Origin: a virus
Lineage: Duplodnaviria; Heunggongvirae; Uroviricota; Caudoviricetes
Virus record (IMG/VR): IMGVR_UViG_2706794662_000005
Length of the DNA stretch: 25,237 nucleotides
Direction: 5' to 3' (one strand)
How positions within the stretch are numbered: position 1 is the first letter of the stretch; the number at the start of each line of letters is the position of its first letter. Shown piece after piece: positions 6,156-25,181 of the stretch. Position numbers and translations under genes: made by a program. The notes below the pieces were generated by a model. The model saw only the letters and a program-made list of their open reading frames with translations. It was not told the DNA's origin and searched no databases.

Positions 6156-6159
6156 ACCA

Positions 6160-7492: not shown

Positions 7493-7499
7493 AGGTAAG

Positions 7500-7980: not shown

Positions 7981-7983
7981 GCG

Positions 7984-9030: not shown

Positions 9031-10781
9031 CAGAACTCCATAACCGTGAAACGCTCGTTTTCTCCTTCGCCGCCAATCGGTTCGTTAATGACAGCAAGCA
9101 TGGTTGCCCACGCAAGGTCGCCGTGGCTGATCCCCCTCGCGCGGTCCGTTTCGTAAGTGATAAAACCGCCCGGTGTTTTCACCTTACGCACGGCGTTAAA
9201 GGCCGCAACCAGCTCGCGTTCGGCGCGATCGTATTCCCACCGCCCGGCACGCATTATTTGCAGCATTTTCAGTACCAGCGACCGTTTTGATGACAGCGTG
9301 AAGGTGTAAGGGATGGCGGCGGGAAAAAACCGTTTCACTATCTGATAGACGGCATCCCCGTGCCCTCCCGTCGCATCAATGCCGATGTGTTCCACGTTGT
9401 AGCGATACGTGAACTCTTCAATAACTCTGGCCTGCTCTTCAAATTCCAGCCCCTGAACGCGTCGCGTCTCCACCGTTCTGAAACGACCACCAGGAACAGC
9501 CGGAGGAACCACCACGGACACAGCGCCGCTGTCGCCGTTACCACTGCTGCCGTTTGCGTCATACCCAATCCATACCGGACGATTCCCCATCGGGCGGGGG
9601 GCAAAGGGTTTCCAGTCTTTCCAGTCGTCGTATCCGTCAACACCGCAGCCAATCAGGATATTCAGGTTAAATGCCGATTCCCCTTCGCGGACAAACTCAC
9701 ACATATAGAGATTGCGGAACTCGTCTTCGGTGTTTTCATCACGAATTTCATCAATATCGGTGTGTTTCCAGCCGTGATTAACCACATCTTCCAGCGTGAC
9801 AATTTGCCGCCACGTCCGGTCAGGGCAGATAAGCCCGTTATGCAGCGTTTTCCAGTCCACAGAAAAACGCTGGCGTTTATGCGCGGCCTTTTTCTCGTTC
9901 CAGCGGTCGCCGTTCCAGTAGGCGTATGCCTCGTGCGTTTCGGTGGATGGCGTGGAGAAGCAGGTGCGCCGCAGTCCGCTGAGGGTTGCCATAGCGCCAG
10001 CCACCTTGCGCAGTTCAGCAAAGCGACTGACCCAGAAAAATTCATCAAAATAAAAATTGCCCGTGTAAGATTGCGCCGTCGCAGCAGAAGTGCCGAGAAA
10101 ATGCATCTCTGCGCCGTTGGAGAGGATGATTTTATCGCCCCCTTTCAGCTCCACATCGACTTCAGCCGCGGCCTTCTGAATAATGCTTTTAAACTGGAAC
10201 GCCTGACGACGCGACGCAGACAAAAAAATCTGGTTACGCTGGTAAGGTTGTGCCACATCGTCACGCAGCGCCATCAGCAGTGCTTCCTGTGCAAAATACC
10301 AGGTCGCCCCAATCTGTCGGGATTTCAGGATCATCCTGTTACGTATCCCGGCTTCCCTGCAAAGCGTCAGGGAGTCAAACCAGCCCCGCTGATGCCACTC
10401 CAGCCTGCTGATGATTTTTTCCCGCAGTGCGGCAATCTGTTCCGGCGTGAAATGATTTTTGAGTTTTTTCGCCCGGCCTTTCTTTCCTGTGGCCGTCGCA
10501 TCCGGCTGGCCATCATGCAGTTTTTTAAGCTGCCGGGTCAGCAGGTCTATTTCCTTAAAGTCACCACCTGTTTTATTCTGTTTTTCAGTAAGCTGGATGA
10601 GGCGCGCATCGATGGACTGCGTGACACGCTGCACGGGTGGCGTTTCATCCCACTGGTCGCGTTTTTTCCACGCATAAATCGTGTTCGGGTTTATTCCCAT
10701 CAGACGTGATATTTCTGCGGGCGGATAACCCTGCCAGTAAAGTTGCCGCGCACGCTGGCGCACAAAAGCGTCCTGAATCAT
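9030..10781 (-). CDS. P: terminase large (ATPase) subunit, P2 gpP-like (583 aa)
   Basis: 583-aa minus-strand ORF divergent from the scaffold gene, with GGGGAG RBS. An N-terminal HTH-like region (YPPAEISRLMGINPNTIYAWKKR) is followed by a large ATPase/nuclease body, as in P2 P. Confidence 0.9.
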   Translation of the reverse strand: MIQDAFVRQRARQLYWQGYPPAEISRLMGINPNTIYAWKKRDQWDETPPVQRVTQSIDARLIQLTEKQNKTGGDFKEIDLLTRQLKKLHDGQPDATATGKKGRAKKLKNHFTPEQIAALREKIISRLEWHQRGWFDSLTLCREAGIRNRMILKSRQIGATWYFAQEALLMALRDDVAQPYQRNQIFLSASRRQAFQFKSIIQKAAAEVDVELKGGDKIILSNGAEMHFLGTSAATAQSYTGNFYFDEFFWVSRFAELRKVAGAMATLSGLRRTCFSTPSTETHEAYAYWNGDRWNEKKAAHKRQRFSVDWKTLHNGLICPDRTWRQIVTLEDVVNHGWKHTDIDEIRDENTEDEFRNLYMCEFVREGESAFNLNILIGCGVDGYDDWKDWKPFAPRPMGNRPVWIGYDANGSSGNGDSGAVSVVVPPAVPGGRFRTVETRRVQGLEFEEQARVIEEFTYRYNVEHIGIDATGGHGDAVYQIVKRFFPAAIPYTFTLSSKRSLVLKMLQIMRAGRWEYDRAERELVAAFNAVRKVKTPGGFITYETDRARGISHGDLAWATMLAVINEPIGGEGENERFTVMEF

Positions 10782-10935
10782 TGCTCCCCCTGAGTAATTA
10801 CAGGAAGATTACCCGCGCGCGAAACCGTTCTCCTTAACCCCCTGTTCTGGCCGTTTTCTTACAACAAAAGCCCTTTGTATCAGCCTGTTACGCTTTGCCA
10901 TCATGACTGAAGAACCAGTCAGAGGGGCAAAAACT
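10782..10935. promoter_or_regulatory. divergent late-promoter region between gpP and gpO
   Basis: 154-bp intergenic between divergently transcribed P and O, which in P2 holds the activator-dependent late promoters. I could not find a clean TGT-N12-ACA activator site by eye, so exact promoter elements are not called. Confidence 0.45.
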
Positions 10936-11772
10936 ATGGCTAATGAAAAAAAGACATCCCGCAAAAAGTTTCGCGTGGCTGTCTCCGGATCAACTGTTGA
11001 TGGCCGTGAAATCAGTCCGGTGCATCTGCGTGAAGCCGCCGAGAACTTCAACCCGGATGTTTACGCTGCCCGCGTGAACGTTGAGCACTATCTCTCGCCA
11101 TGCCCGTCAAGCGAATTTTCCGCAATGGGCGATGTCACCGCACTGAGTACGGAAGACATTACGGAAGGTCCGCTGGCCGGACGTACTGCGCTGTATGCAG
11201 AAATCGAACCGACCGAGCGCATGAAGCAGCTTGTCGCGGACGGCAAGAAAATCTATTCCAGTATCGAACTGCACCCGCAGTTCTCCGTTAACGGGCGCGC
11301 CTATCTGGTCGGGCTGGCGATGACCGACACCCCGGCAAGCCTGGGCACTGAGCGCCTGAAATTCACGGCACAGCAACGTCAGGCGGTGATGACGTTCAAC
11401 AGTATCCAGGGTGAAGCACCGCTTATCTCCGAAGCCATCGAGTCTGAAATCATCGAAATGGCAGAACAACGCCAGGAAGAAGGCACCCAGTGGTTTAACC
11501 GCGTAATGGGGATTATTGGTCGTGGCCGCAAAGCGGATGACGCCAGTTTCTCCCGTATTCAGGAAGCGGTGGAAAGCGTCGCAACGTCACAGGCCGACAT
11601 TATCGACCGTTTTAATGCGCTGGAAACACGCCATCAGCAGGACAGCCAGAAAATCACTTTACTGACCACGGAGCTGACAGCACTGAAGGAAAAACTGCGC
11701 ACGCAGGACGGCGATCCGCAGAACCGGTTCACCGCAACGGGCGCAGCCTCCGACCAGCTGGCTGACTTCTGA
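10936..11772 (+). CDS. O: capsid scaffolding protein, P2 gpO-like
   Basis: MANEKKTSRKKFRVAVSGSTVDGREISP... and internal blocks (YLVGLAMTDTPASLGTE) resemble P2 gpO. ATG at 10936 has an AGAGGGG RBS; the ORF track uses an upstream in-frame ATG at 10903. Confidence 0.85.
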   Translation: MANEKKTSRKKFRVAVSGSTVDGREISPVHLREAAENFNPDVYAARVNVEHYLSPCPSSEFSAMGDVTALSTEDITEGPLAGRTALYAEIEPTERMKQLVADGKKIYSSIELHPQFSVNGRAYLVGLAMTDTPASLGTERLKFTAQQRQAVMTFNSIQGEAPLISEAIESEIIEMAEQRQEEGTQWFNRVMGIIGRGRKADDASFSRIQEAVESVATSQADIIDRFNALETRHQQDSQKITLLTTELTALKEKLRTQDGDPQNRFTATGAASDQLADF

Positions 11773-11795
11773 TAAGACAAAGGAGCAAATTTTTT

Positions 11796-12756
11796 ATGAA
11801 TCTGGTGATGTCAGATATTACCCGCAACAAGCTGGGTTGCTATATGGCGCAGCAGGCGTCGCTTAACAATATCCCGGTTTCTGCACTGGTATCGCGATTT
11901 ACCGTGGAACCTGCGGTGCAGCAACGTTTTGAAAACGCCTCAAAGGATAGCACCGAACTTACAAAAAAAATTAACGTGATCGGCGTGACCGACCAGAAAG
12001 GCGAAAAAATCCTCCTGGACACCACAGGACCGATTGCACGCACAAATACCAGTTATGACGGAACAAAACGCCGTAACCCGAATAACGTGGTTGATCTGAA
12101 AAACCGCAAATACCAGTGCGAACAGGTGAACTACGACACGTTTATTTCGTATCCGCAGCTTGATGCCTGGTCGGCACACAGCGATTTTCAGTCCCGCATC
12201 AGCGCACAGATTGCCCGACAGGTGGCACTTGACCGCATCATGATCGGTTTCAACGGCACATCTCACGCGGATGAGTCCAACTTCAGCACCAACAAGCTGC
12301 TTCAGGACGTTAACGTGGGGTGGCTGGAGCACATCAGAACCAATGCCAGCGAGCGCGTAATGAATGACGTGACGCTGACTTCCCGCAACATGGACAACAC
12401 CGTGGCGCACGCGGGTAAATACGCGAACCCTGATGCACTGGTACAGGACGCGCGCTCATCTCTGCTGGATGAATGGCACAAGGAAGCTGACGACCTCGTG
12501 GTGATTATGGGGCGCAACCTGTTTAACTCGCTGCGTCTGCCAGTGCTGAACAGCATCAGCGGCCAGAATCCCAATGCGGAATTACTTGCCGGGCAGCTCA
12601 TCCTGTCATCGCGCACCATTGGCGGGCTGGGTGTGTTCCTTGCACCGTTCTTCCCGGATGCAACGATGCTGATCACCTCATTCAACAACCTGTCGATTTA
12701 CTGGCAGAAAGGTTCAATGCGTCGTCTGATGAAAGACGAACCGGAATACAACCGCA
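11796..12756 (+). CDS. N: major capsid protein, P2 gpN-like (3' end lost in N-gap)
   Basis: AAGGAG RBS. Blocks FTVEPAVQQ, KYQCEQVNYDTFISYPQLDAWS, IMIGFNGT, LQDVNVGWL and NLSIYWQ match gpN as I recall it. The ORF track fuses it to gpM through the N-run. Confidence 0.88.
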
Positions 12757-13026
12757 NNNNNNNNNNNNNNNNNNNNNNNNNNNNNNNNNNNNNNNNNNNN
12801 NNNNNNNNNNNNNNNNNNNNNNNNNNNNNNNNNNNNNNNNNNNNNNNNNNNNNNNNNNNNNNNNNNNNNNNNNNNNNNNNNNNNNNNNNNNNNNNNNNNN
12901 NNNNNNNNNNNNNNNNNNNNNNNNNNNNNNNNNNNNNNNNNNNNNNNNNNNNNNNNNNNNNNNNNNNNNNNNNNNNNNNNNNNNNNNNNNNNNNNNNNNN
13001 NNNNNNNNNNNNNNNNNNNNNNNNNN
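12757..13026. other. assembly gap (N-run, 270 nt)
   Basis: Run of n characters; hides the gpN 3' end and the gpM 5' end. Confidence 0.99.
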
Positions 13027-13676
13027 CCAGAAGCGCGAAAGCCGACATCAAAAAAGCGTTGTTGCCGGACTTTTCCGGCTGGATTGAGGGAACGCTGGAG
13101 GCTGACGGCGGGCAACAGGACGAAGTGATTGCCACGCTGATGGTGTGGGCGATTGACTGCGGCGATCTTCCGCTTGCGCTGCGTATTGGTGCGTATGCGG
13201 TCCGTCACAACCTCATCATGCCGGATAACTTTGGCCGTACTGCTGCCACAGTGCTGACCGAAGAAATCTGCAATCCGGTACTGACGCAGGCCGGGACGGA
13301 TGCCGACGCGGATTTGTCCGTCTTTATCGAACCACTGGACACACTTTGGGAAATTGTCGCCAACCAGGATATGCCGGACGAAGTGCGCGCCAAATTATGC
13401 AAGGCGTGCGCCTTTGCCCGCCGTGGCCTGAGCGATGCGGACAGCATGGCCTCATCACTGAAGCTGCTGCGCGAAGCGATGCATCTGAACCAGAACGCAG
13501 GTGTGAAACGCGAGATTGCAACCCTTTCCCGCGCCCTGAAAAAAGCCGATTCCGCAGCCGCACCAGAAGACGCCAGCGCACAGCAGGCGCAGGACGAAAG
13601 CAGCGAAAGTAAAAAGACAACGCGGAAGCCTGCAACACGAAAAACCACCGCGACGCAGAAGGCGAAGCGCGGTTAA
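13027..13676 (+). CDS. M: terminase small (endonuclease) subunit, P2 gpM-like (5' end in gap)
   Basis: Post-gap translation ...VWAIDCGDLPLALRIGAYAVRHNLIMP...DMPDEVRAKL...NAGVKREI... followed by a basic tail resembles P2 gpM. Confidence 0.82.
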
Positions 13677-13691
13677 CGACTGACCCCGTCA

Positions 13692-13764
13692 GCGGGCGGC
13701 GTGCGCGGTGTTCCGGTTTGGCTCCGTGACCGTTTACACCGCGCACCCACCGCCCGATTTTTTC
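13692..13764 (+). terminator. long imperfect hairpin followed by T-run between gpM and gpL (possible attenuator or partial terminator)
   Basis: gcgggcggcgtgcgcggtgt (13692-13711) pairs with acaccgcgcacccaccgcccg (13736-13756), then attttttc (13757-13764). Confidence 0.35.
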
Positions 13765-13777
13765 AGGAGTGAACCCC

Positions 13778-14272
13778 ATGAGTATGGTTGCCAGAACTGA
13801 ACCCGGACCCGCAGAGGACGACATCACCGACACCGAAGATGGCGATACCCGTATTTCAGCGGGTGCATTCTGGCCGGATATTGTGCTGCGCGAGCTGCGT
13901 CTGGCGGTACGACTGCCGGGCCGCGTGACCACCTCCCGCCTGCTGCATACCGCCACCGGGGCCGTGGCACACGTTACCCGCGAGCTGGAAGCATGGCAGC
14001 AGGAACAGCAGGCGGCTGGCCATCAGACGCTGGCCGATGTTCCGGCACCTGTAATTAACGGAGAAAGCGTCAATCTCTGGCACTGGCGCAATGCTGTTTA
14101 TACCGCCACACGCGCCCTGATTCTGGAGCGTTACCGCGATGCGGACACAACGGACAAGGGCGACCGCCGGGCGGACGCACTGGATATACAGACATCGGAT
14201 TTGTGGCGCGATGTGAGCTGGGCCATCTCTGACATTCTGTGCCGCCCGCGAATCTTTGCGGAGTTGTGCTGA
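13778..14272 (+). CDS. L: head completion / stabilisation protein, P2 gpL-like
   Basis: ATG at 13778 with AGGAG RBS at 13765-13769 (the ORF track starts at GTG 13769). Position after gpM and a size of about 165 aa fit gpL. Confidence 0.8.
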   Translation: MSMVARTEPGPAEDDITDTEDGDTRISAGAFWPDIVLRELRLAVRLPGRVTTSRLLHTATGAVAHVTRELEAWQQEQQAAGHQTLADVPAPVINGESVNLWHWRNAVYTATRALILERYRDADTTDKGDRRADALDIQTSDLWRDVSWAISDILCRPRIFAELC

Positions 14273-14469
14273 TGAAAGTGAAGACACTGGAAGGCGACAC
14301 CGTGGATTCGCTCTGTTTCCGGTACTACGGCACGACGCAGGGCGTCACCGAAAAGGTGCTGGATGCCAACCCCGGACTCTGCCGACAGGTATTTCTGGAA
14401 GCCGGACAGGAGGTGGAAATGCCGGAGCCGGAGAAGAAAAAACAACGAGAGATGATACAGCTATGGTAA
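14272..14469 (+). CDS. X: tail protein X, P2 gpX-like (65 aa)
   Basis: ATG overlaps the gpL stop (TGATG). MKVKTLEGDTVDSLCFRYYG...LDANPGL resembles gpX; the ORF track uses an upstream start at 14239. Confidence 0.7.
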   Translation: MKVKTLEGDTVDSLCFRYYGTTQGVTEKVLDANPGLCRQVFLEAGQEVEMPEPEKKKQREMIQLW

Positions 14470-14765
14470 CAGGTTTTTTTCAGCGGGTGAGTGACTGGAT
14501 CACCTTCTGGGCATCAGTCACAGCCACCACAATAGGCGTGATGACCATCAGTGAAAAAATCGCCCTTGCCGGGTTGTTACTCGGTTCTCTGTCTGCATTA
14601 CATGCCTGGCGACATCGCCGCCTGATGGAAACCGCCATGCAGCGTCGCAATGAACTCATCGCCAGTATCCTGGCGCAGTCAGACGCACGGCCACTTCACG
14701 ACAGTGAGCGTCAGGCTCTGAACATTCTGCGGGATAACGATACACATGATAAAGCTGCCCGTTAA
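14463..14765 (+). CDS. putative holin with two transmembrane segments (100 aa)
   Basis: In-frame ATG at 14463 inside ORF-track 14256-14765. Two hydrophobic stretches (WITFWASVTATTIGVMTI and IALAGLLLGSLSALHAW) are followed by a charged tail, immediately upstream of and overlapping the endolysin gene. Confidence 0.55.
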   Translation: MVTGFFQRVSDWITFWASVTATTIGVMTISEKIALAGLLLGSLSALHAWRHRRLMETAMQRRNELIASILAQSDARPLHDSERQALNILRDNDTHDKAAR

Positions 14766-15294
14766 ACGTTACGCCGTAGCCGCCATTGTGGCGCTGGGGT
14801 TCTCCATTGCCCCTCACAAACTCCGGACCAGCCCGGAAGCGCAAATCCGCATTGCCACATGGGAGGACTGTCGCGCAACGCCTTACCGGGATATTGCCGG
14901 GGTAATGACCGTGGGGTGCGGCTCGACCGGGCATGTGGAAAATCGTCTGTACACCGAAACGGAAGTCGCCGGGCGCTGGGTTAATGATATGCAACATGCA
15001 GAAAACTGCATAAATCAGAACTTCAGCGGCAACGCCATGCCACAGTCCGCGTTTGAGGCAATGACAGATGCCGCCTTTAATCTTGGATGCAGAAATCTTA
15101 TGTGGTTCAGGGATAAGAACCGTAACTACCACCGCACCACTATCTGGAAACATGCACAGGCGCACAACTGGCCTGACATGTGCAACAGACTGACTGACTT
15201 CGTGAACAGCGGCGGCGAACGCTCACAGGGACTGGTTAACCGTCGTACTGATTTTCGTGCATGGTGCTTACGTGACACCGGAGGCCAGTCATGA
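14746..15294 (+). CDS. phage lysozyme / endolysin (GH24-like) with N-terminal hydrophobic signal-anchor-like segment
   Basis: Catalytic Glu-Asp-Thr arrangement in ATWEDCRATPYRDIAGVMTVGCG, as in T4/P21 lysozymes. The N-terminal AVAAIVALGFSIA stretch suggests a SAR-type endolysin. Occupies the P2 K position. Confidence 0.85.
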   Translation: MIKLPVKRYAVAAIVALGFSIAPHKLRTSPEAQIRIATWEDCRATPYRDIAGVMTVGCGSTGHVENRLYTETEVAGRWVNDMQHAENCINQNFSGNAMPQSAFEAMTDAAFNLGCRNLMWFRDKNRNYHRTTIWKHAQAHNWPDMCNRLTDFVNSGGERSQGLVNRRTDFRAWCLRDTGGQS

Positions 15295-15567
15295 AAGTGC
15301 GTTACATCCTGATGATGGCACTGACCGTCCTCACGCTGCTGACCATAACACTCTGGCAGACATTCAGACTGGGGCAGGAAGACGGACACAACCGTTATAC
15401 ACAGGCGCAACTGGACGATTACAGCCGGACCCTGAAAGAGGCCGGCACCATCATCAGCACCGCATCCGGTGTACTGCGTGACGTCATGACAGCGCGCCAG
15501 AACCGACAACAGGAAGGGGAAATCCGACGTGAACAGCTACGCAACGATATCACGACAGATGCATGTG
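15291..15567 (+). CDS. Rz/LysB-like inner-membrane spanin (3' end lost in N-gap)
   Basis: ATG overlaps the endolysin stop (ATGA). N-terminal transmembrane segment (ILMMALTVLTLLTITLW) is followed by a charged, coiled-coil-like region. Confidence 0.6.
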
Positions 15568-15839
15568 NNNNNNNNNNNNNNNNNNNNNNNNNNNNNNNNN
15601 NNNNNNNNNNNNNNNNNNNNNNNNNNNNNNNNNNNNNNNNNNNNNNNNNNNNNNNNNNNNNNNNNNNNNNNNNNNNNNNNNNNNNNNNNNNNNNNNNNNN
15701 NNNNNNNNNNNNNNNNNNNNNNNNNNNNNNNNNNNNNNNNNNNNNNNNNNNNNNNNNNNNNNNNNNNNNNNNNNNNNNNNNNNNNNNNNNNNNNNNNNNN
15801 NNNNNNNNNNNNNNNNNNNNNNNNNNNNNNNNNNNNNNN
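15568..15839. other. assembly gap (N-run, 272 nt)
   Basis: Run of n characters; hides the spanin 3' end, any embedded outer-membrane spanin and the gpR 5' end. Confidence 0.99.
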
Positions 15840-16298
15840 ACTGATTCCCTGCGTGAAGCCATGACCCGTTCATGCCGGTGGTGTCATGCCAACCCGGAAA
15901 AATTCACCATTTTCGTGGAGAGCGGCAACATTGAAACGACCGGAGAAACCCCATCGTTTGTTTACCGCTATCAGATAGTGATGTTTGTCATGGATTACGC
16001 CGGAGAGCTGGACGACCTCACGCTGCCGCTGCTGGCGTGGTTATCCGAAAATCAGCCACAGTTGTTGCTCAATCCGGAGCGTAATCAGGACATCAAATTT
16101 TCCGCCGTTATCAATGACGATGACAGCGCCGATCTCCTGTTTACGCTCCCCCTGCGGGAACGCGTTCGCATCACGCGCAGCAGTCAGGGCACACCGCAGG
16201 CAGAACACCTGCCGGAGCCAAAACCCCGCCTGCCCTCTTCCGAAGGCGACTGGTCGCATGTATTCCAGGATGTGACGTGGGGGGAAAGCGATGGATAA
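15840..16298 (+). CDS. R: tail completion protein, P2 gpR-like (5' end in gap)
   Basis: Post-gap block LPLLAWLSENQPQLL matches the gpR family as I recall it. Ends with an ATGGATAA overlap into gpS. Confidence 0.72.
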   Translation, partial: TDSLREAMTRSCRWCHANPEKFTIFVESGNIETTGETPSFVYRYQIVMFVMDYAGELDDLTLPLLAWLSENQPQLLLNPERNQDIKFSAVINDDDSADLLFTLPLRERVRITRSSQGTPQAEHLPEPKPRLPSSEGDWSHVFQDVTWGESDG

Positions 16299-16926
16299 GG
16301 CATTCACCCGCGTGGATGAAACCTTTGAGGCTATCCGCGACAGCCTGAATCAGCAGGCCATTAATAACATCGCCAGAAAGCTGGCACAGGATTTACGCCG
16401 CGCCCAGCAGGCGCGTATCCGGTCACAGAAAGCGCCGGACGGGACCGCATGGACACCACGCAGACGCCGCGTAACCCGGATACAGGAGCGCATTCGCTTT
16501 ATCTGGAATAACGAAGCACGCACGCTGAAAAACTGGCATCACGACACGGGGAAATACGGGCGAACCATCACCGGGTGGGATGAGGATAAAAACAATATCC
16601 GCACGTTTTACCGGGATGACATCGACCGTTTTCTGGAAATACGCACCCGGCGCATCAACCAGGACAGCACCAGGCGCGTCTCCATGTTCGTAAAACTGCG
16701 CACCGCCCGCTACCTGAAAGCCCGTGCAGATGCTTCCGGTGTGACGGTGGGTTACAGCGGCGTGGCCGCACGTATTGCACGCGTTCATCAGTTCGGTGAG
16801 CGCGATCAGGTTGCGCCGGGCATTTTCACCGATTACCCGGTACGTGAGCTGCTGGGTATCAGCCAGGCAGATGAGCGCCTGATTTATAACACGGTGCTGG
16901 GCCGGATTGCGGAGGCTGTACGATGA
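16291..16926 (+). CDS. S: virion morphogenesis / tail completion protein, P2 gpS-like (211 aa)
   Basis: Position between R and V, translationally coupled on both sides. Longer than P2 gpS (about 150 aa by recollection). Confidence 0.7.
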   Translation: MDKAFTRVDETFEAIRDSLNQQAINNIARKLAQDLRRAQQARIRSQKAPDGTAWTPRRRRVTRIQERIRFIWNNEARTLKNWHHDTGKYGRTITGWDEDKNNIRTFYRDDIDRFLEIRTRRINQDSTRRVSMFVKLRTARYLKARADASGVTVGYSGVAARIARVHQFGERDQVAPGIFTDYPVRELLGISQADERLIYNTVLGRIAEAVR

Positions 16927-17490
16927 GCGCAGAACTCATGCGACTGCTGAGCAATATCATCCGCACCGGGATCATCTCTGAAGTTGATGAGGAATCCTGG
17001 TGCGTGCGCGTTCGCAGCGGCGAANNNNNNNNNNNNNNNNNNNNNNNNNNNNNNNNNNNNNNNNNNNNNNNNNNNNNNNNNNNNNNNNNNNNNNNNNNNN
17101 NNNNNNNNNNNNNNNNNNNNNNNNNNNNNNNNNNNNNNNNNNNNNNNNNNNNNNNNNNNNNNNNNNNNNNNNNNNNNNNNNNNNNNNNNNNNNNNNNNNN
17201 NNNNNNNNNNNNNNNNNNNNNNNNNNNNNNNNNNNNNNNNNNNNNNNNNNNNNNNNNNNNNNNNNNNNNNNNNNACTTTGCAGGCATCCATCAGCGTGAC
17301 ACTGAACACGCCTGTCGTGGAATGCACAGACCTTCTGAGAACAGCGACGCTTGACGTCACAAAAGGGGGAACGATGAGCGGCAATATCACGCACAGCGGC
17401 GGCGATTTCACCTCAAACGGCATCACAGTGCATACGCATAAGCACGGTGGCGTTAAAGGTGGCAGCGATTCGACAGGAGGCCCGCAGTGA
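16923..17490 (+). CDS. V: baseplate spike / assembly protein, P2 gpV-like (interrupted by N-gap)
   Basis: N-terminus MSAELMRLLSNIIRTGII... before the gap and C-terminus ...TKGGTMSGNITHSGGDFTSNGITVHTHKHGG... after it both match gpV. The two halves are in different frames across the N-run, so the N length is not the true gap length. Confidence 0.8.
17025..17274. other. assembly gap (N-run, 250 nt)
   Basis: Run of n characters inside gpV. Confidence 0.99.
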
Positions 17491-17837
17491 CAACCCGCTA
17501 CACAGGAATGAACCCGGACGGGACGGGAAACCTGAACGATATGGCGCACCTGAAACAGTCAGTCAGGGACATCCTGACCACCCCGCTGGCAAGCCGGGTT
17601 ATGCGACGGGAATATGGCAGCCTTGTGCCTGATTTGATTGACGAACCCATGAATAACACCACGCGTCTGCAATGCATGAGTGCTACCGTGATTGCACTGA
17701 CACGATGGGAACCACGCATTGCCCTGAACGCCATCGACGTTGTCTGGAAGGCAGGAGGCCACGCCGGGGTGACGCTGTCGGGCACTGTCATGCAGACCAT
17801 GCAGAATGTTGAATTAACCATCACGCTGAGGGAGTAA
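17487..17837 (+). CDS. W: baseplate wedge protein, P2 gpW-like (116 aa)
   Basis: GTG start overlapping the gpV stop. MTTRYTGMNPDG...VMRREYGSL...W.PR matches the gpW/GPW family. Confidence 0.85.
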   Translation: MTTRYTGMNPDGTGNLNDMAHLKQSVRDILTTPLASRVMRREYGSLVPDLIDEPMNNTTRLQCMSATVIALTRWEPRIALNAIDVVWKAGGHAGVTLSGTVMQTMQNVELTITLRE

Positions 17838-17840
17838 ATC

Positions 17841-18737
17841 ATGCCTGCCGTTGACCTTTCCCAGTTACCGGAACCCGCCATCATCGCGGAGCCTGACTTT
17901 GAGGCAATTCTGGCTGACACAAAGGCCATGATGATTGCAGCTTATCCCGCCGAACAGCGTGAAGTCGTCTCCGCCGCACTGGAACTGGAATCGGAACCCC
18001 TGAACGTTATCGCTCAAACCATGTCGTTTCGTGAAATGCTGTTACGCCAGCGGGTCAATGAGGCCGCACGCGCCTGCATGTTGAGCCACAGCGCCGGAAC
18101 AGACCTGGACAACCTCGCGGGCAATATGAACACAAAGCGCCTGGTTATCACTCCGGCAACGGATACCACCGACGTGGTGATGGAGAACGACACCTCGCTG
18201 AGACTGCGGGCGCAGCGGGCGTATGACGGCCTGAGTGTTGCAGGCCCGTCAGGCGCATACGAGTATTTTGCCCGCAGCGCCAGCGGTCTGGTGCGCGATG
18301 CGCGGGCCATCAGTCCGTCTCCGGCAAATGTGACGGTTTCCATCCTGTCCACTGAGGGCGACGGCACAGCAACGGAGGCGTTGCTTAATACCGTTCGCGC
18401 CGTTCTGAATGCAGAGGATACCCGCCCGGTGGCCGACCGCCTGACCGTACAGAGTGCCAGAATCGTGACATGGCGGCTGAATGCAAAACTGTACTTTTAC
18501 CCCGGTCCGGAATCCGAACCTATTCTGGCTGCGGCTGAATCGTCGTTCAGGAAGTGGCTGGCTGAGCAGGGGCTTATCGGTCAGGACGTGGCGTTGTCCG
18601 CCATTGCTGCCGCACTGCATGTGCACGGTGTGCAACGCGTGGAGATAATCGAACCCACACAGAATATGGCCATCAGCGACATACAGGCGGCGCGCTGTGA
18701 GTCATTCACCATCAGCGAAGGTGGGCGTAATGAGTAA
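17841..18737 (+). CDS. J: baseplate assembly protein, P2 gpJ-like (298 aa)
   Basis: Size and position after W; GGAG RBS upstream. Confidence 0.85.
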   Translation: MPAVDLSQLPEPAIIAEPDFEAILADTKAMMIAAYPAEQREVVSAALELESEPLNVIAQTMSFREMLLRQRVNEAARACMLSHSAGTDLDNLAGNMNTKRLVITPATDTTDVVMENDTSLRLRAQRAYDGLSVAGPSGAYEYFARSASGLVRDARAISPSPANVTVSILSTEGDGTATEALLNTVRAVLNAEDTRPVADRLTVQSARIVTWRLNAKLYFYPGPESEPILAAAESSFRKWLAEQGLIGQDVALSAIAAALHVHGVQRVEIIEPTQNMAISDIQAARCESFTISEGGRNE

Positions 18738-19260
18738 TTCACTGTTACCACCATCAGCCAGCAATTTCATGCGTTGTGCCGAAGCCGTCGGAACACGCAT
18801 TACAGACATTCCGGCAGACCTCAACACGCTGTGGTCGCCGGACACCTGCCCGGTGCATCTGCTGCCTTATCTCGCCTGGGCGTTTTCCGTTGACCGCTGG
18901 GATCGCAACTGGCCGGAAGAGACAAAGCGACAGGTGATTCGTGATGCATGGCTGATACACCGACACAAAGGAACCATCAGCGCCCTGCGACGGGCCATTG
19001 AGCCGCTGGGATACCTCATTCGCGTGTCTGAGTGGTGGGAGTTCAACGGCGAACCCGGAACATTCAAGATTGATGTTGGCACGCTGGACAGTGGCGTGAC
19101 GGAGGAAATGTATCTGGAAATGGAGCGGTTGATTGCTGATGCCCGCCCGGTCAGCCGCCACATGACAGGGCTGAATATCATTCAGGAGATTCAGGGAGAT
19201 ATTTTCGCGGCAGCAGCAACTTACGACGGTGAAGTCATTACCATTTATCCGGACGATTAA
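18730..19260 (+). CDS. I: baseplate protein, P2 gpI-like (176 aa)
   Basis: ATG at 18730 overlaps the gpJ 3' end. Size and position between J and the tail-fibre gene. Confidence 0.82.
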   Translation: MSNSLLPPSASNFMRCAEAVGTRITDIPADLNTLWSPDTCPVHLLPYLAWAFSVDRWDRNWPEETKRQVIRDAWLIHRHKGTISALRRAIEPLGYLIRVSEWWEFNGEPGTFKIDVGTLDSGVTEEMYLEMERLIADARPVSRHMTGLNIIQEIQGDIFAAAATYDGEVITIYPDD

Positions 19261-19262
19261 GC

Positions 19263-21299
19263 ATGAGTACCACAACACGAAAATTTAAAACCATTATCAC
19301 CGATACGGGTGCAAAAAAATTAGCGCAGGCAACCGCGCCAGATGGGAAACCTGTCCGCCTGACACATATGGCCGTGGGTGACGGCGGCGGTACTTTACCC
19401 ACGCCAGACAGTAAGCAGACCCGTCTTGTGCATGAGGTGTGGCGACATACCGTTAATCGCGTCACCCTGGACGCAACACATCAGAACCACATTATTGCGG
19501 AGCTGGTTATTCCTCCTGAAACGGGCGGATTCTGGATCCGGGAAATTGGTGTGTTTGATGAGCACGGCGATTTGATCGCGGTAGGCAATACTGCCGAAAG
19601 TTACAAGCCAACCGTTGCCGAAGGATCCGGACGTGCACAAACATTTCGCACCATTCTGACCGTATCCAGCACTGCCACTGTGGCGCTTACCGTGGATAAC
19701 ACCATGGTGATGGCCACAGTGAATTACGTGGATGACAAACTGAAAGAGCATGAACAGTCACGACGTCACCCGGACGCCTCGCTGACCGCAAAAGGCCTTG
19801 TCCAGCTCAGCAACGCCACCAACAGCACGTCTGAAACGCTGGCAGCGACACCAAAAGCCGTTAAGGCAGTAATGGATGAAACGAACAAGAAAGCCCCATT
19901 AAACAGCCCGGCACTGACCGGAACGCCAACAACACCAACTGCGCGACAGGGAACGAATAATACCCAAATCGCAAGCACGGCTTTCGTTATGGCTGCGATT
20001 GCCGCACTTGTAGACTCTTCGCCTGATGCACTGAACACACTGAACGAGCTGGCGGCGGCGCTGGGCAACGACCCGAATTTTGCGACCACCATGACTAACG
20101 CGCTTGCGGGTAAGCAACCGAAAGATGCCACTCTGACGGCGCTGGCGGGGCTTGCTACTGCGGCAGACAGGTTTCCGTATTTTACGGGGAATGATGTCGC
20201 CAGCCTGGCAACCCTGACAAAAGTCGGGCGGGATATTCTTGCGAAATCGACCGTTGCCGCCGTTATCGAATACCTCGGTTTACAGGAAACGGTAAACAAG
20301 GCTGGTAACGCCGTGCAAAAAAATGGCGATACGTTGTCCGGTGGACTTACTTTTGAAAACGACTCAATCCTTGCCTGGATTCGAAATACTGACTGGGCAA
20401 AGATTGGGTTTAAAAATAATTCGGATGCAGACACCGATTCCTACATGTGGTTTGAAACAGGCAACAACGGCAATGAATATTTCAAATGGAGACACCGCAT
20501 CATTGGCACCCGGCCTAAAGACCTGATGAATCTTAAATGGAATGCTTTGTCTGTTCTTGTTGAAGCCCTTTTCAGCAGTGAAGTGAAAATATCGACAGTC
20601 AATGCACTGAGGATATTTAATTCATCTTTTGGTGCCATTTTTCGTCGTTCTGAAGAATGCCTGCATATCATCCCTACACGAGAGAATGAAGGGGAAAATG
20701 GTAATATAGGGCCACTACGCCCCTTTACGCTTAATCTCAGAACTGGCCGGATAAGCATGGGGCATGGTCTTGATGTTACAGGGGATATATTTGCAAACCG
20801 TTTTGCAATTAACAGTAGTACCGGCATGTGGATTCATATGCGTGACCAGAATGTTATTTTGGGACGTAATGCGGTATCCACTGATGGTGCTCAGGCTTTG
20901 CTCCGTCAGGACCATGCCGACCGCAAATTTATGATTGGCGGTCTGGGAAATAAGCAATTTGGCATCTACATGATTAATAACTCAAGGACAGCCAATGGCA
21001 CCGATGGTCAGGCGTACATGGATAATAACGGGAACTGGCTTTGCGGCTCGCAAGTTATTCCCGGCAACTATGGCAATTTTGATTCCAGATATGTGAAAGA
21101 TGTTCGACTTGGTTCACAGCAATATTATGGAGTGAACAACTGGCAAACATGGAATTTTCAGTGCCCGTCAGGCTATGTACTGACGGGGATTAACGTACAG
21201 GATACCGGAAAAAACTCTGCCGATAATATTGCAGGCGTTCATTACAGGCCAGTGCAAAAGTATATAAATGGCACTTGGTATAATGTGGCGAGTATTTAA
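19263..21299 (+). CDS. H: tail fibre protein, P2 gpH-like (678 aa), C-terminal part inside invertible segment
   Basis: N-terminus [23 protein letters not shown]... is typical of P2 H. From about residue 340 (LGLQETVN) the sequence is the variable receptor-binding part, ending ...[11 protein letters not shown]. Confidence 0.9.
20263..20296. repeat. left inverted repeat / invertase crossover site (gix-like) inside gene H
   Basis: ttatcgaatacctcggtttacaggaaacggtaaa; its reverse complement occurs at 23330-23363 with 2 mismatches. Confidence 0.8.
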
Positions 21300-21300
21300 T

Positions 21301-21828
21301 ATGATGCACTTAAAGAACATAAAAGCAGGTAATGCTAAAACAGTGGAGCAGTATGAGTTAACAAAGAAGCACGGAGTCATCTGGCTTTACTCTGAGGACG
21401 GAAAAAACTGGTATGAGGAAGTGAAGAACTTTCAGCCAGACACAATAAAGATTGTTTACGATGCAAATAATATTATTGTCGCCATCACCAAAGATGCCTC
21501 CACGCTTAACCCTGAAGGTTATAGCGTCGTTGAGGTTCCTGATATTACAGCTAATCGTCGTGCTGATGATTCCGGTAAGTGGATGTTTAAGGACGGAGCT
21601 GTGGTTAAACGGATTTATACGGCTGACGAACAGCAACAACAGGCCGAATCACAAAAGGCCGCATTGCTTTCCGAAGCTGAATCAGTCATCCAGCCGCTGG
21701 AACGCGCTGTCAGGCTGAATATGGCGACGGACGAGGAACGCACACGACTGGAAGCATGGGAACGCTACAGTGTTCTGGTCAGCCGTGTGGATACGGCAAA
21801 GCCAGAATGGCCACAAAAGCCTGAGTAA
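21301..21828 (+). CDS. G: tail fibre assembly chaperone, P2 gpG-like (175 aa)
   Basis: ATG at 21301, 2 nt after the H stop. [20 protein letters not shown]... and ...[24 protein letters not shown]... are near-identical to the N-terminal half of the minus-strand paralogue at 21857-22390. Confidence 0.85.
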
Positions 21829-21833
21829 AAATT

Positions 21834-21853
21834 AAGGCCCGATATCGGGCCTT
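21834..21853. terminator. bidirectional hairpin terminator between convergent G and G'
   Basis: Perfect 20-bp palindrome aaggcccgatatcgggcctt with an A-run on the left and T-rich sequence on the right. Confidence 0.6.
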
Positions 21854-21856
21854 GTT

Positions 21857-22390
21857 TCATTCTGGTTGTTCGGGAAACGTTACTGGCAGGCTGGAGGTGT
21901 CTGTGGATTCGACCTTCTGCGCATAGAGCATCCACTCGGTTAATTTTTGTTTATTCTCGTCGGAAATAATGCCCAGCCGTAGCTGTGAGTCCCATAGCTG
22001 GGTTTTATCCCTGACGAGCTGTAGCAGGCTTTGCTTTTCATTTTCCGCTTGTTGCCTCTGCTCTTCCCCGGTATAAGTTCGCTTTATCACTACGCCATCT
22101 TTGAACATCCATTTACCTGAAATATCAGCCCGGCGATTTGCTGTAATATCAGGAACCTCAACGACGCTTGCGCCTTCCGGATTAATTGCTGAAACATCCT
22201 TTTCAATACAAATAATAACGCCGTTGTGGTCATAGACCATTTTCAACGTATCAGGCTGAAAGTTCTTTTGTTCCTCATACCAGTTTTTCCCATCCTCTGT
22301 ATAAAGCCATTTGATGTTAAATTGTTTCGTTAGCTGGTATTGCTCTTTTGTTTCAGGATTACCAGCAGAAATGTTTTTTAAGTGCATCAT
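21857..22390 (-). CDS. alternative tail fibre assembly chaperone (G'-like, 177 aa)
   Basis: N-terminal half nearly identical to gpG (MMHLKNISAGNPETKEQYQL...), C-terminal half divergent. Minus strand within the invertible segment. Confidence 0.85.
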   Translation of the reverse strand: MMHLKNISAGNPETKEQYQLTKQFNIKWLYTEDGKNWYEEQKNFQPDTLKMVYDHNGVIICIEKDVSAINPEGASVVEVPDITANRRADISGKWMFKDGVVIKRTYTGEEQRQQAENEKQSLLQLVRDKTQLWDSQLRLGIISDENKQKLTEWMLYAQKVESTDTSSLPVTFPEQPE

Positions 22391-22392
22391 CG

Positions 22393-23355
22393 TTAAATAC
22401 TCCCCGCGTTATACCACGTCCCATTAATGCAATACTGAATTGGCCTTGCCTGAGTTGTATCAATTAGTTCATCTCTGTTTGAGTTAACGGAACCGGTAAC
22501 AACATAACCTGACCTGTCAGACCATCCGGGACCATTCCATGTCTGAACAGATAACAGACCACCAAGGCGAATACCTGTAATAAACCTTGAGTTACATTCT
22601 GCCTGCGTATATGCACCAACATCTCCCGCAGAGGGTTTGCGGGTTGTGGTGTAAAACTCTGACCAGTCAGCTTCAAAGCCATAACCATCACGCGCTGAAC
22701 GATAAAAAATACCGCCGTTCCTGTAATTCACGCGGAACTGTACAGCAGGGCAGCTCCCCGTATTCATATTGAAGTGGAGGATTAATGTCGATGCGCCACC
22801 AATGTTTGCGTTATAGACCCCGCTATTCCAGTTCCAGCCAACAGCTTTATCATTTCCGACAGTGCTTCCTGTTTGCCCTAAAGCAAATGCAGGTTGTTGA
22901 TTTTTCGTGTTGTAGTCTCGTCGCCAGCCAGGAGCGTAAGCATCACCATGATTAATATAAGTGAATTGAGCGTTAGTAATTCCGCCACCGCTGGACGTGC
23001 TCGGCGTGGTAACGCGTATGGTCATTGCGCCGCGAGTGCCAATAACTTCCACCACAGCACCTGCAAGACAAATATTTCCGCAACCTGTATCTGTAATGAC
23101 CTTATTATTTGCATAAGCCCATGAGCCTTTGCACATCCAGTAAGGATGGTTAAATGCTCCCTGACTCTCCAGCCACGAAATAAATTGCGCGGTTGTCCAG
23201 ACCTGACTATCGCCACCAATATTCAGCCATGAGCTATATGCGCGGCAGGCACCAATATTTTTGGTGAAGGTATCTTTCCCCGGAATATCTGCGCCGTTCT
23301 GGTTTTTCTGTAATGCGCCAGAAGCCTGATTTACCGTTTCCTGTAAACCGAGGTT
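22393..23355 (-). CDS. alternative tail fibre C-terminal cassette (H' variable region, start-less until inverted)
   Basis: Minus-strand frame is open from the crossover site to the stop at 22393-22395. It begins [21 protein letters not shown]..., matching H at LGLQETVN, and ends ...CINGTWYNAGSI. The ORF track shows only the part from the first internal Met (22393-23136). Confidence 0.8.
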   Translation of the reverse strand, partial: NLGLQETVNQASGALQKNQNGADIPGKDTFTKNIGACRAYSSWLNIGGDSQVWTTAQFISWLESQGAFNHPYWMCKGSWAYANNKVITDTGCGNICLAGAVVEVIGTRGAMTIRVTTPSTSSGGGITNAQFTYINHGDAYAPGWRRDYNTKNQQPAFALGQTGSTVGNDKAVGWNWNSGVYNANIGGASTLILHFNMNTGSCPAVQFRVNYRNGGIFYRSARDGYGFEADWSEFYTTTRKPSAGDVGAYTQAECNSRFITGIRLGGLLSVQTWNGPGWSDRSGYVVTGSVNSNRDELIDTTQARPIQYCINGTWYNAGSI

Positions 23356-23363
23356 TTAGATAA
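23330..23363. repeat. right inverted repeat / invertase crossover site (gix-like)
   Basis: tttaccgtttcctgtaaaccgaggttttagataa; the core ttcctgtaaaccgaggttttagataa (23338-23363) closely matches my recollection of the Mu gix site. Confidence 0.8.
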
Positions 23364-23417
23364 TGGCCGTTTCCGGCCTGCATGGCATGATTTGCGCTTT
23401 TGGACGGGAGATTCAGC

Positions 23418-23706
23418 GTGCTGATTGGCTATGTAAGGGTATCAACAAATGACCAGAATACAGACCTGCAACGAAACGCTCTTGTTTGTGCAGGATATGA
23501 ACAAATATTTGAAGATAAATTAAGCGGAACAAGGACAGGCCGACCTGGATTAAAACGTGCTTTAAAGCGCCTTCAAAAAGGTGACGCACTGGTTGTCTGA
23601 AAACTGGACTGACTGGGTCACTGTATGCGGCATCTTGTCGTGCTGGTGGTGGAAGCCTAGAAAAAGTATCGGGTGTTGCTGAACCGTGTTGATACATCAA
23701 CTGCAC
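23418..23706 (+). pseudogene. Pin/Gin-family serine invertase, 5' copy with in-frame stops (decayed or sequence-error-affected)
   Basis: LIGYVRVSTNDQNTDLQRNALVCAGYEQIFEDKLSGTRTGRPGLKRALKRLQKGDALVV is intact and holds the catalytic-serine motif. It is followed by TGA where Trp is expected (23598-23600) and TGA where Arg is expected (23610-23612), then diverged MRHLVVLV-like sequence, TAG at 23658-23660 and a small deletion. Start is GTG 23418 or ATG 23400. Confidence 0.55.
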
Positions 23707-23956
23707 NNNNNNNNNNNNNNNNNNNNNNNNNNNNNNNNNNNNNNNNNNNNNNNNNNNNNNNNNNNNNNNNNNNNNNNNNNNNNNNNNNNNNNNNNNNNNN
23801 NNNNNNNNNNNNNNNNNNNNNNNNNNNNNNNNNNNNNNNNNNNNNNNNNNNNNNNNNNNNNNNNNNNNNNNNNNNNNNNNNNNNNNNNNNNNNNNNNNNN
23901 NNNNNNNNNNNNNNNNNNNNNNNNNNNNNNNNNNNNNNNNNNNNNNNNNNNNNNNN
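23707..23956. other. assembly gap (N-run, 250 nt)
   Basis: Run of n characters within the invertase locus. Confidence 0.99.
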
Positions 23957-24345
23957 GGCGAAGCATGAAACATCTGATTTCTCTCGTCGGGGAACTACGG
24001 GAGCGAGGAATTAATTTTCGCAGTCTGACCGACAGCATAGATACATCTTCTCCAATGGGGCGTTTTTTCTTCCACGTGATGGGTGCCCTGGCTGAAATGG
24101 AACGTGAATTAATTGTTGAACGTACACTGGCCGGACTGGCGGCAGCACGCGCACGGGGGCGCACAGGCGGACGTCGACCGAAGCTGACAAAAGAACAGCA
24201 TGAGCAAATAGCAAGGCTGATCAAAAACGGGCACGACAGAAAACAACTGGCAATAATTTACGGCATTGGTATATCGACGATTTATCGTTACCACCCCGCA
24301 GGAGAATCAATCGGAACAATAGAGAAGAGTCAGGAAACAAAATAA
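23957..24345 (+). CDS. Gin/Hin/Pin-family DNA invertase, C-terminal part (5' end in gap)
   Basis: ...RSMKHLISLVGELRERGINFRSLTDSIDTSSPMGRFFFHVMGALAEMERELIVERTLAGLAAARARGRTGGRRPKLT... followed by a C-terminal HTH region, a strong match to serine invertases. It covers residues also represented, in decayed form, before the gap. Confidence 0.88.
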
Positions 24346-24372
24346 CCGCTAATCTGACCATTAGCGGTTTTT
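24346..24372. terminator. rho-independent terminator after invertase (likely bidirectional)
   Basis: Stem ccgctaat / attagcgg with loop ctgacc, followed by ttttt; on the opposite strand it is followed by ttatttt, downstream of the convergent gpU-like gene. Confidence 0.6.
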
Positions 24373-24380
24373 GTGTTAAA

Positions 24381-24875
24381 TCAGAACAACCCTTTAACTG
24401 AACTGGCCGCGCTGTTAAGGGATGATGTTACCTTATCTTTGAAGCCGGACAGCATATCGCTGAACGATGAGGATTGCAGGCGCTCCCGCAAATCCTCATC
24501 ACAGCGTTCAAGAGTCAGTGAAAATTCTATCTTTTTCGCCTTACCGTAGCGATCAAACTCGGAGCGGGTCGTATTCGTTTCGGTCAGGACATACATGCCG
24601 TAAATCTGCCCGACGCCATCAATCAGAGGCCAGGGTCGTCCTGTATACGCCTGCGTGGTCAGCAGCGACAGCGACACTTCGCCACCTGTAATTTCAGGAT
24701 AAAGCACACCAGAAAGAACGATGCGCTCATCACCTGCACCGATATACTGCCAGCTTGCCGAACGGTTAACGCGTTCATTTTTCACATGCCGCCAGCTTTT
24801 GTTTTGCTGTAACTGCTGATGCGGCAATGTACGCAGCTCAAAAACAAACATGCCGTAGATCATCATCATGGCCAT
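24381..24875 (-). CDS. phage tail protein, P2 gpU-like (164 aa)
   Basis: YGMFVFELRTLPHQ...KSWRH...RVNRSASWQYIGAGDERIVLSGVLYPEITGG...WPLIDGVGQIYGMYV...KIEFSLTLER matches the gpU family pattern as I recall it. GGAG RBS; the start lies 6 nt after the upstream ORF stop. Confidence 0.65.
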   Translation of the reverse strand: MAMMMIYGMFVFELRTLPHQQLQQNKSWRHVKNERVNRSASWQYIGAGDERIVLSGVLYPEITGGEVSLSLLTTQAYTGRPWPLIDGVGQIYGMYVLTETNTTRSEFDRYGKAKKIEFSLTLERCDEDLRERLQSSSFSDMLSGFKDKVTSSLNSAASSVKGLF

Positions 24876-24881
24876 GACTCC

Positions 24882-25181
24882 TCAATCTTTATCGTAAAAA
24901 CTGCCACGCCCGGCACGGGCGCGCCGTTCCATTTCTGCCCTGACCATTTCACCGACCAGTTTCGCCAGTTCGCGGGGATTCTGCGTAACAACGTTATGCA
25001 GATGAACATGAATTTCACCACCAAATCCGGAGGCAACAGGCTCCCGGTTACGGGAAGTTACAGGAACTGATGCCACTGGAGAGCGTATGGCCTCCGCCAC
25101 CGGGCGGGAGCTGGCCGCAACAACAGGGACCAGCGCCGGAGGCAGCGGAGCCGGGACCACGGGTGTGAGGTGTACTGGCAA
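24882..25181 (-). CDS. short ORF directly upstream of the gpU-like gene; possibly a remnant or 3' end of a tape-measure (gpT)-like gene
   Basis: Occupies the position of the T 3' end in P2-like phages and is coupled to the gpU-like gene, but an in-frame TAG at 25191-25193 closes the frame upstream. The putative start is a TTG, and the sequence beyond is AT-rich. Confidence 0.3.
   Translation of the reverse strand: MPVHLTPVVPAPLPPALVPVVAASSRPVAEAIRSPVASVPVTSRNREPVASGFGGEIHVHLHNVVTQNPRELAKLVGEMVRAEMERRARAGRGSFYDKD

Follow-up and report, generated by a model that had tools for sequence, protein, structure and literature searches.

How one tail-fibre gene can be given two alternative tips, and whether the recombinase that would exchange them is still encoded beside it, are the questions raised by a locus in IMGVR_UViG_2706794662_000005. 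This is an IMG/VR record of a Caudoviricetes virus, 25,237 nucleotides (nt) in length, and the entire stretch is referred to as the window. An initial annotation, made from the letters alone, had placed an invertible tail-fibre segment at 20263-23363, involving the fibre gene H, two chaperone genes (G and G') and an adjacent invertase gene. The analysis described here supports that assignment: the region is very probably a Din-family (Gin/Cin/Pin/Hin-type) inversion switch of the tail-fibre tip in a P88-type, P2-like prophage of E. coli. The principal features are listed below, with open reading frames (ORFs) given in amino acids (aa).

19263-21299, plus strand: tail-fibre gene H, an ORF of 678 aa; within it, the constant part (aa 1-337) extends to about 20275 and the expressed variable part, Hv, spans 20276-21299
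20263-20288, plus strand: left crossover site, gixL-type, 26 bp, TTATCGAATACC-TC-GGTTTACAGGAA, lying within H and encoding ..IEYLGLQE..
21301-21828, plus strand: tail-fibre assembly chaperone G, 175 aa (Pfam Caudo_TAP, E 3e-37; PHROG 136)
21833-21854, both strands: GC-rich hairpin in the gap between the convergent genes G and G', with T-runs on either strand, matching a terminator-like consensus
21857-22390, minus strand: alternative chaperone G', 177 aa (Pfam Caudo_TAP, PF02413, E 7e-37), in the silent orientation
22393-23355, minus strand: alternative, start-less fibre C-terminus H'v, with a frame open for 320 aa (Pfam gp37_C)
23338-23363, minus strand: right crossover site, gixR-type, 26 bp, TTATCTAAAACC-TC-GGTTTACAGGAA (reverse complement)

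Crossover sites and the two fibre tips

The segment is bounded by inverted arms at 20259-20323 and 23303-23367, which a repeat finder scored as 65 nt long and 80% complementary. These contain an exact 25-nt core, ACCTCGGTTTACAGGAAACGGTAAA, at 20272 and its reverse complement at 23330. The initial annotation had described inverted repeats of about 34 bp with 2 mismatches, and the aligned arms agree, as 20263-20296 and 23330-23363 differ at 2 positions. Each repeat includes a 26-bp site, and positions 20263 and 23363 are the outer ends of the two sites. Both consist of 12-bp half-sites that are imperfectly symmetric around a 2-bp core, both carry the same asymmetric ...ACC TC GGT..., and they are opposite in orientation. 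The initial annotation had likened the core to the gix site of phage Mu, and this was correct to within 1-2 bases: both Mu gix sites in AF083977 read TTATCCAAAACCTCGGTTTACAGGAA, with the annotated G-segment boundaries at the site centres. The window sites match this sequence at 24/26 and 25/26 positions (2 nt and 1 nt off, respectively), with all differences in the outer half-site, and the crossover sites of Escherichia phage P88 (KP063541 / NC_026014) are identical to those of the window. When the 25-kb window was scanned with a degenerate site allowing up to 3 mismatches, these two matches only were found, and there were 0 in 100 shuffles. As there are two sites, two states are expected. A multi-site shufflon or Min-type system would have three or more sites and more than two arrangements, with the tyrosine recombinase Rci in true shufflons; here, the 25-kb window has only two sites, and its recombinase belongs to the serine family.

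The left site lies inside H, which has an N-terminal Phage_tail_fib domain (Pfam, E 3.8e-56) and Phage_fiber_2; public assemblies contain the exact H protein in 228 blocks. The tip expressed here, Hv, shares 66.7% identity with the variable part of Mu S and 80% with P88 H, and the match to PDB 5yvq (Mu S) has an E value of 2.4e-147. Hv differs from Mu S and P88 H mainly over the last ~60 residues. Residues 617-661 of the window H have no DNA-level match in P88, and this region overlaps HR2 of P88 (aa 716-746), which has been shown experimentally to set host range (PMC5285337).

The second tip, H'v, is encoded on the opposite strand and is 98.4% identical to the variable part of Mu S'; its match to PDB 8ju3 (Mu S/S' fibre) has an E value of 3.8e-219. 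Its frame opens with NLGLQETVN right after a TAA, and the first ATG appears only at 23136, 73 codons in. The ORFs are therefore arranged as initially described, with the H C-terminus and G on the plus strand and a start-less alternative C-terminus on the minus strand. The proposal that inversion would join this end to H in frame at LGLQETVN was reproduced by an in-silico exchange at the site centres, which produced an in-frame, 656-aa H::H' fusion. The two tips are otherwise unrelated, the parts in common being the junction residues and the last ~75 aa (40%). The shared ending, INGTWYN..SI, that had been noticed falls within this last stretch, with one tip ending in INGTWYNAGSI. In the annotations of P88 and of the prophage of E. 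coli FDAARGOS_943 (NZ_CP065615.1, ~4.2-22 kb), a 247-aa "tail fiber protein" is recorded at 22393-23136 on the minus strand, starting from the first internal ATG of H'. This call is an annotation artefact of a start-less cassette in the silent orientation.

Each tip is accompanied by its own chaperone. G is 90.3% identical to Mu U and 92.6% identical to P88 G, and is the partner of Hv, while G' is 97.7% identical to Mu U'. The two are 58% identical to one another overall, and the initial statement that they have N-terminal halves in common is upheld, as 86/120 N-terminal positions (72%) are identical versus 16/55 (29%) in the C-terminal part.

Orientation in related prophages and comparison with Mu

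Comparison between isolates indicates that the segment flips in this prophage lineage, because prophages with an identical J protein carry exactly the inverted state. Here, relatives L028, L036 and L037 are arranged as in the window, as is the FDAARGOS_943 prophage, and L033 and L035 are inverted. In these two, H has 656 aa and precedes the 177-aa chaperone, while Hv and the 175-aa chaperone are encoded on the opposite strand. When the window was flipped in silico, the resulting sequence was colinear with L033 (99.96%) and L035 (99.83%); the H::H' fusion predicted from it differed by 1 residue from the fibre of either relative. Direct alignments of the window to the inverted relatives break inside 20259-20303 and 23356-23367, that is, in the repeats. 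Contiguous copies of the inverted junction are found in 126 complete E. coli genomes, and of the junction in its present form in 320. In addition, the P2-like prophage of O103:H2 strain 12009 is an annotated inverted example, in which the outer half-site was left in place.

These comparisons also bear on a very different explanation, in which the repeats are scars of a cassette duplication or of horizontal exchange, the segment never inverts and the minus-strand ORFs are dead remnants. The single assembled sequence shows one orientation and the adjacent invertase gene reads as broken, as such an explanation would have it. However, near-identical prophages exist in both states, which is the pattern that the initial annotation had proposed to look for in reads, observed here between isolates. 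Their alignments break within the 26-34-bp repeats and leave the outer half-sites in place. Moreover, the two silent ORFs are uninterrupted (320 and 177 codons), their products are 98% identical to proteins that function in Mu, and both sites retain the gix core and agree with gix at 24-25 of 26 positions. Duplication scars are therefore considered extremely improbable. The practical consequence is for annotation: a fibre gene of this kind encodes two valid products, here of 678 aa and 656 aa, and host-range prediction or phage engineering that is based on a P88-type H should count the second, Mu S'-like tip.

The resemblance to Mu goes further than was first assumed. The initial annotation had proposed a Mu/P1-style switch on a P2-like tail; this is borne out, and the homology is closer than that description implied. 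Judged by DNA identity, the segment is a homologue of the Mu G segment, beyond mere resemblance: 21249-23608 is 92.9% identical to the G segment and the 5' end of gin. The sequence features that define the Mu G and P1 C cassettes are present, namely a constant N-terminus, alternative ends that face one another, one chaperone per tip, and homology to S, U, U' and S'. Of the features of a Gin-type inversion system, the paired sites and the occurrence of both orientations are likewise seen; the exception is the adjacent recombinase gene, which encodes the expected domains but reads as split in the window. In Mu, and also in D108 and SfMu, there is likewise a 3-kb segment with 34-bp inverted repeats containing the 26-bp gix sites. 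Similarly, a constant Sc part is joined in Mu to either Sv-U or S'v-U', and the invertase gene lies right outside gixR, with an enhancer in its 5' end. Besides the divergent Hv tip and the outer half-sites, two differences are clear. The constant part of Mu, Sc, is ~170 aa, whereas the window has a P2-type gpH N-terminus (Phage_tail_fib, 337 aa), and where Mu has the com and mom genes, P2-type tail genes follow the invertase gene in the window. In Mu, the orientation of the G segment with its 34-bp repeats determines the host, with G(+) phage infecting E. coli K-12 and G(-) phage infecting other enterobacteria (PMC4406740).

Similar systems are found elsewhere. The C segment of P1/P7 (Cin) has 87-91% DNA identity to the window over about 3 kb. 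Longer inverted repeats, of ~0.6 kb, flank the P1 segment. P1/P7 Cin, Pin of the e14 P segment and Hin of the Salmonella H segment belong to the same recombinase family, with 26-bp sites of the same build and the same use of a Fis enhancer. For Mu and P1, invertible host-range segments are textbook knowledge, and Gin, Cin, Pin and Hin cross-complement one another. In a P2-like setting, an invertase of the Fels-2 prophage, fin, reportedly acts on hix (Kutsukake et al. 2006). Hin flips a promoter, not alternative coding ends (PMC3798978). Closest in setting are the P2-like prophages of enteropathogenic E. coli (EPEC) E2348/69, for which Goldberg et al. (2014) measured tail-fibre segment inversion by sequencing and PCR and found coexisting orientations in clonal cultures (PMC4272514). 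There, an invertase and inverted repeats likewise switch alternative tail-fibre C-termini; one EPEC locus has three repeats and four variants, whereas the window has exactly two sites. The element in the window is itself already known, as P88 and many E. coli genomes have it in deposited, annotated form. The paper describing P88 makes no mention of inversion (PMC5285337).

By analogy to these systems, the switch would operate as follows. Late transcription of V-W-J-I is expected to read into H, of which the first ~337 codons are fixed. At the left 26-bp site, the reading frame would enter the 3.1-kb segment in either of its orientations. In the present orientation, H is predicted to end in the Hv tip and to be followed by its own, Mu U-like chaperone G. 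After inversion, the same N-terminus would be fused at LGLQETVN to H'v, followed by the Mu U'-like G'. The cassette facing away would be silent because it is without a start codon and without a promoter. The hairpin at 21833-21854, between the convergent chaperone genes, would be expected from its sequence to terminate transcription in either orientation of the segment. For the exchange itself, dimers of a serine invertase would bind both inverted 26-bp sites, with activation coming from an enhancer that is bound by Fis and, as in the Gin, Cin and Hin systems, is located in the 5' part of the invertase gene. DNA would then be cut at the central TC/GA dinucleotide and the strands exchanged by subunit rotation. 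The invertasome with its Fis enhancer and subunit rotation have been described (PMC3798978), and in Mu the Fis sites fall inside the coding sequence of gin, about 550 bp before the start of mom (PMC3378877). Here, the candidate Fis-dependent enhancer is placed at roughly 23480-23590, in the 5' part of the invertase gene, since 23300-23608 is 93.5% identical to the gixR-gin 5' region of Mu. The sites, the frames, the cassettes, the homology and the occurrence of both orientations in near-identical prophages are seen directly in the sequences, whereas we infer the enhancer, the Fis dependence, the chemistry and the hosts of each tip from the Mu, P1 and Hin systems. A population of lysogens could thus release mixed virions with two receptor specificities, which would amount to host-range bet-hedging.

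Several points weigh against assignment of the region as a working switch. Both orientations are seen between isolates, and this copy is represented by one assembled orientation. The position of the enhancer comes from the DNA identity of about 93.5% to the 5' region of Mu gin, and a degenerate Fis-motif scan with enhancer-like spacing returned no decisive pair. The receptor specificities of the two tips, and with them the different host ranges of virions of each orientation, are extrapolated from Mu and from mapping of the P88 H tip. Finally, the adjacent invertase gene contains stop codons, a foreign stretch and a change of frame, as explained below.

An apparently interrupted invertase gene

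The initial annotation had treated the invertase beside the right repeat as intact. This is not borne out by the window as given, which has no intact invertase ORF and in which the gene reads as divided, as follows.

23418-23600, plus strand: invertase 5' fragment with a GTG start, 60 codons (Pfam Resolvase, E 2.9e-15)
23497-23706, plus strand: lambdoid-type stretch, 100% identical to a truncated invertase pseudogene and tfa 3' fragment of a lambdoid remnant
23707-23956: run of 250 N, which hides the junction back to the P88-type invertase
23959-24345, plus strand: invertase 3' part, from codon 68 to the stop (Pfam Resolvase, E 8.6e-21; HTH_7, E 5.8e-14)
24344-24369, both strands: hairpin and T-run after the invertase stop, terminator-like on both strands and common to the convergent gpU-like gene
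24381-24875, minus strand: gpU-like tail gene, converging on the invertase

The 5' fragment has the catalytic-serine motif, YVRVSTNDQ, and is 95% identical to residues 1-60 of Gin. It ends in a TGA at 23598, where relatives have Trp, and is followed in frame by a TGA at 23610 and a TAG at 23661. The tfa fragment begins at about 23661. For a time, 23609-23706 was regarded as a degenerate second invertase copy; this was rejected, as the annotation of NCTC86 identifies the sequence from about 23661 as the 3' end of a tail-fibre assembly gene. The 3' part comprises the end of the catalytic domain and HTH_7, and is 100% identical to the corresponding part of the 195-aa invertase of FDAARGOS_943. 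After the run of N, the P88-type invertase resumes at codon 67 in a frame that differs from that of the 5' fragment. In intact relatives, the gene is 588 nt long and encodes 195 aa; the FDAARGOS_943 protein is 85.6% identical to Mu Gin, and an intact relative's invertase matches the Gin structures PDB 3uj3/4m6f at E 1e-100. In a scan of 21700-24450, sigma-70-like promoters were fewer than in shuffles and therefore no promoter is claimed for the invertase.

The run of N at this position is one of four in the window, the others being at 12757-13026 (270 nt), 15568-15839 (272 nt) and 17025-17274 (250 nt). The idea that these masks preserve length was rejected, since the first three stand for 288, 277 and 264 nt in the 100%-identical FDAARGOS_943 prophage. 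As masks change length, arguments about frame across them are unsafe, and this explains apparent frameshifts such as that in baseplate gene V (16923-17490).

The lambdoid-type stretch is joined to the P88-type sequence at a repeat. The P88 type and a lambdoid-remnant variant do not differ over positions 23330-23496 (167 nt, with gixR and the invertase 5' end), and the switch to the lambdoid type could have occurred anywhere within this repeat. The switch point had been narrowed to 23466-23496, and this was withdrawn, because the lambdoid copy in L027 is already identical from 23330; that copy is identical to the window over 23330-23706. L027 (IMGVR_UViG_2695420708_000013) is a provirus from an isolate genome, in which a 5-kb lambdoid piece lies between P88-like pieces with single-N gaps. 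Its joins, at reverse-complement coordinates 1594 and 6670, fall at the shared gix/invertase repeat and are probably a scaffolding artefact. Lambdoid remnants that carry the truncated invertase allele are located near trp/ompW.

Searches for the window's arrangement in other collections were negative. Gapped patterns across the mask (N{240,260} and N{261,291}) gave no match in genome contigs and none in viral or metagenome contigs. A 151-nt exact pattern was absent from metagenome contigs and was found in IMG/VR only in L027, where it belongs to the lambdoid copy and not to a hybrid. None of 5426 complete E. coli genomes had the sequences on either side of the mask joined. Exact-protein look-ups with the 60-aa invertase fragment, H and J returned no contig with this arrangement, and all exact matches to the 60-aa fragment were in lambdoid remnants near trp.

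These results bear directly on whether the disruption is biological. It is about an even chance that it is not, and that the contig or scaffold is chimeric, joined at the repeat shared with lambdoid prophages, or that an intact P88-type 5' end lies under the mask; in either case, the prophage would have an intact 195-aa invertase and the switch would be autonomous, like that of FDAARGOS_943 and P88. The 167-nt repeat makes an easy wrong turn for an assembler, and the L027 scaffold joins lambdoid and P88-like pieces at exactly this place. The arrangement in the window is present in 0/5426 complete genomes and in none of the contig collections scanned. In all ten relatives read that retain the gene, the 195-aa invertase is intact, and FDAARGOS_943 is 99.8-100% identical to the window in the flanks. 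In addition, the P88-type stretch from within gixR to codon 66 would be 266-287 nt, and the other masks hide 264-288 nt. This fit, however, is a matter of arithmetic, as the masked sequence itself cannot be read. Furthermore, the P88 type returns shortly after the lambdoid stretch, so that a simple wrong turn would need a second join.

The converse is that the invertase gene was replaced or split by ectopic recombination with, or repair from, the lambdoid pseudogene; this is possible, although on balance unlikely. The result would be an orphan switch, locked in the H-G state unless a Din invertase acts in trans. The sequence as given, with three in-frame stops and the halves out of frame, favours such an event. 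So does the origin of 23497-23706, which is 100% identical to a remnant allele found in hundreds of E. coli genomes. Decay of the switch is also common among relatives, the silent cassette and invertase being deleted in L016, L019 and L025, and insertion sequences (IS) being present in L017, L021, L022 and L028. Moreover, orphan segments beside the same truncated invertase are found in both orientations, and the established cross-complementation among Gin, Cin, Pin and Hin is counted in support. Against a real disruption, the orphan arrangement is unique across all collections searched, no homology was found at the right-hand junction, nor any microhomology in the downstream sequence of NCTC86, and the same repeat is demonstrably mis-scaffolded in another assembly.

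The deletions and insertions in these relatives can be described further. In L016, L019 (= L030) and L025, most of G', all of H' and the invertase have been lost, so that G directly precedes gpU. In L017 (= L028), L021 and L022, IS3-family elements are inserted between H' and the invertase gene or inside G'.

Flipping with a dead local invertase would need either a hidden or mis-assembled intact copy or another Din invertase in the cell. Action in trans on this switch is plausible from the distribution of such genes, as invertase-5'-like sequence occurs in 4531/5426 complete E. coli genomes, at a median of 2 places per genome. Lambdoid remnants near trpA were also compared. L006 versus L011/L015 have the same truncated 60-aa invertase and carry the 3.1-kb segment in opposite orientations at 99.8% identity. 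As remnants with a truncated invertase carry the segment both ways, this comparison implies inversion by invertases acting in trans.

A more specific history can be proposed, tentatively and with considerable doubt. Here, the 167-nt repeat would have mediated an exchange between the gixR-invertase 5' end of a P88-type prophage and the invertase pseudogene of a lambdoid remnant resident in the same cell. The switch of the P88-type prophage would then lack a recombinase of its own and be flipped only by the invertases of other prophages in that cell. What is mildly new about an otherwise known element is only the exchange that appears to have taken place with a lambdoid remnant at the gix-invertase repeat they share. 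If the orphan switch is true, it would show concretely that unrelated prophages in one genome can recombine and cross-talk through their inversion modules. Either way, assemblers can be trapped by the gix-invertase 5' repeat that P2-like and lambdoid prophages have in common, and this repeat may also be a real hotspot of recombination.

The surrounding P88-type prophage

By identity and gene order, the window is a P88-type, P2-like prophage (Peduoviridae, Xuanwuvirus) of E. coli. Positions 1-19262 are 96.7% identical to phage P88 over 83% of their length, and positions 19263-24400 are 93.7% identical over 91%. P88 has the same order of genes, V-W-J-I-H-G, followed by the inverted G' and H', the invertase, gpU and the tape measure. 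The FDAARGOS_943 prophage also has the gene order of the window, and is 99.8-100% identical to it over 7032-25168, except at the masks and the invertase; its H is of equal length (2037 nt). The relatives carry the Pfam families of P2 gpR, S, V, W, J, I, U and E. In both P88 and FDAARGOS_943, the 195-aa invertase is intact, whereas the window has the lambdoid-type stretch with stops.

P88 differs from the window in the fibre gene itself. P88 H, at 764 aa, has additional repeats in its constant part and ends in a different tip, whereas H of the window has 678 aa. The constant part is 86 aa shorter than that of P88, and 19787-19867 aligns twice in P88 (L001 2105-2292). This double alignment suggests the gain or loss of fibre-shaft repeats.

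Two further regions of the window depart from P88. The first, 6470-7531, lies between a parB-like stability gene and the portal gene and has no match in P88; the part up to 7031 has none in FDAARGOS_943 either. It contains an orphan ORF of 174 aa at 6532-7056, which belongs to no Pfam or PHROG family, a DUF7446 ORF at 7053-7292 and a zinc-ribbon-like ORF at 7307-7492, and may be a hotspot for accessory genes. The second is the lysis region, 14461-15839, which does not align to P88, where the endolysin is an M15 peptidase. As this region instead matches the FDAARGOS_943 type, with a lysozyme-family endolysin, it appears from these alignments to be a module swap inside the P88-like group.

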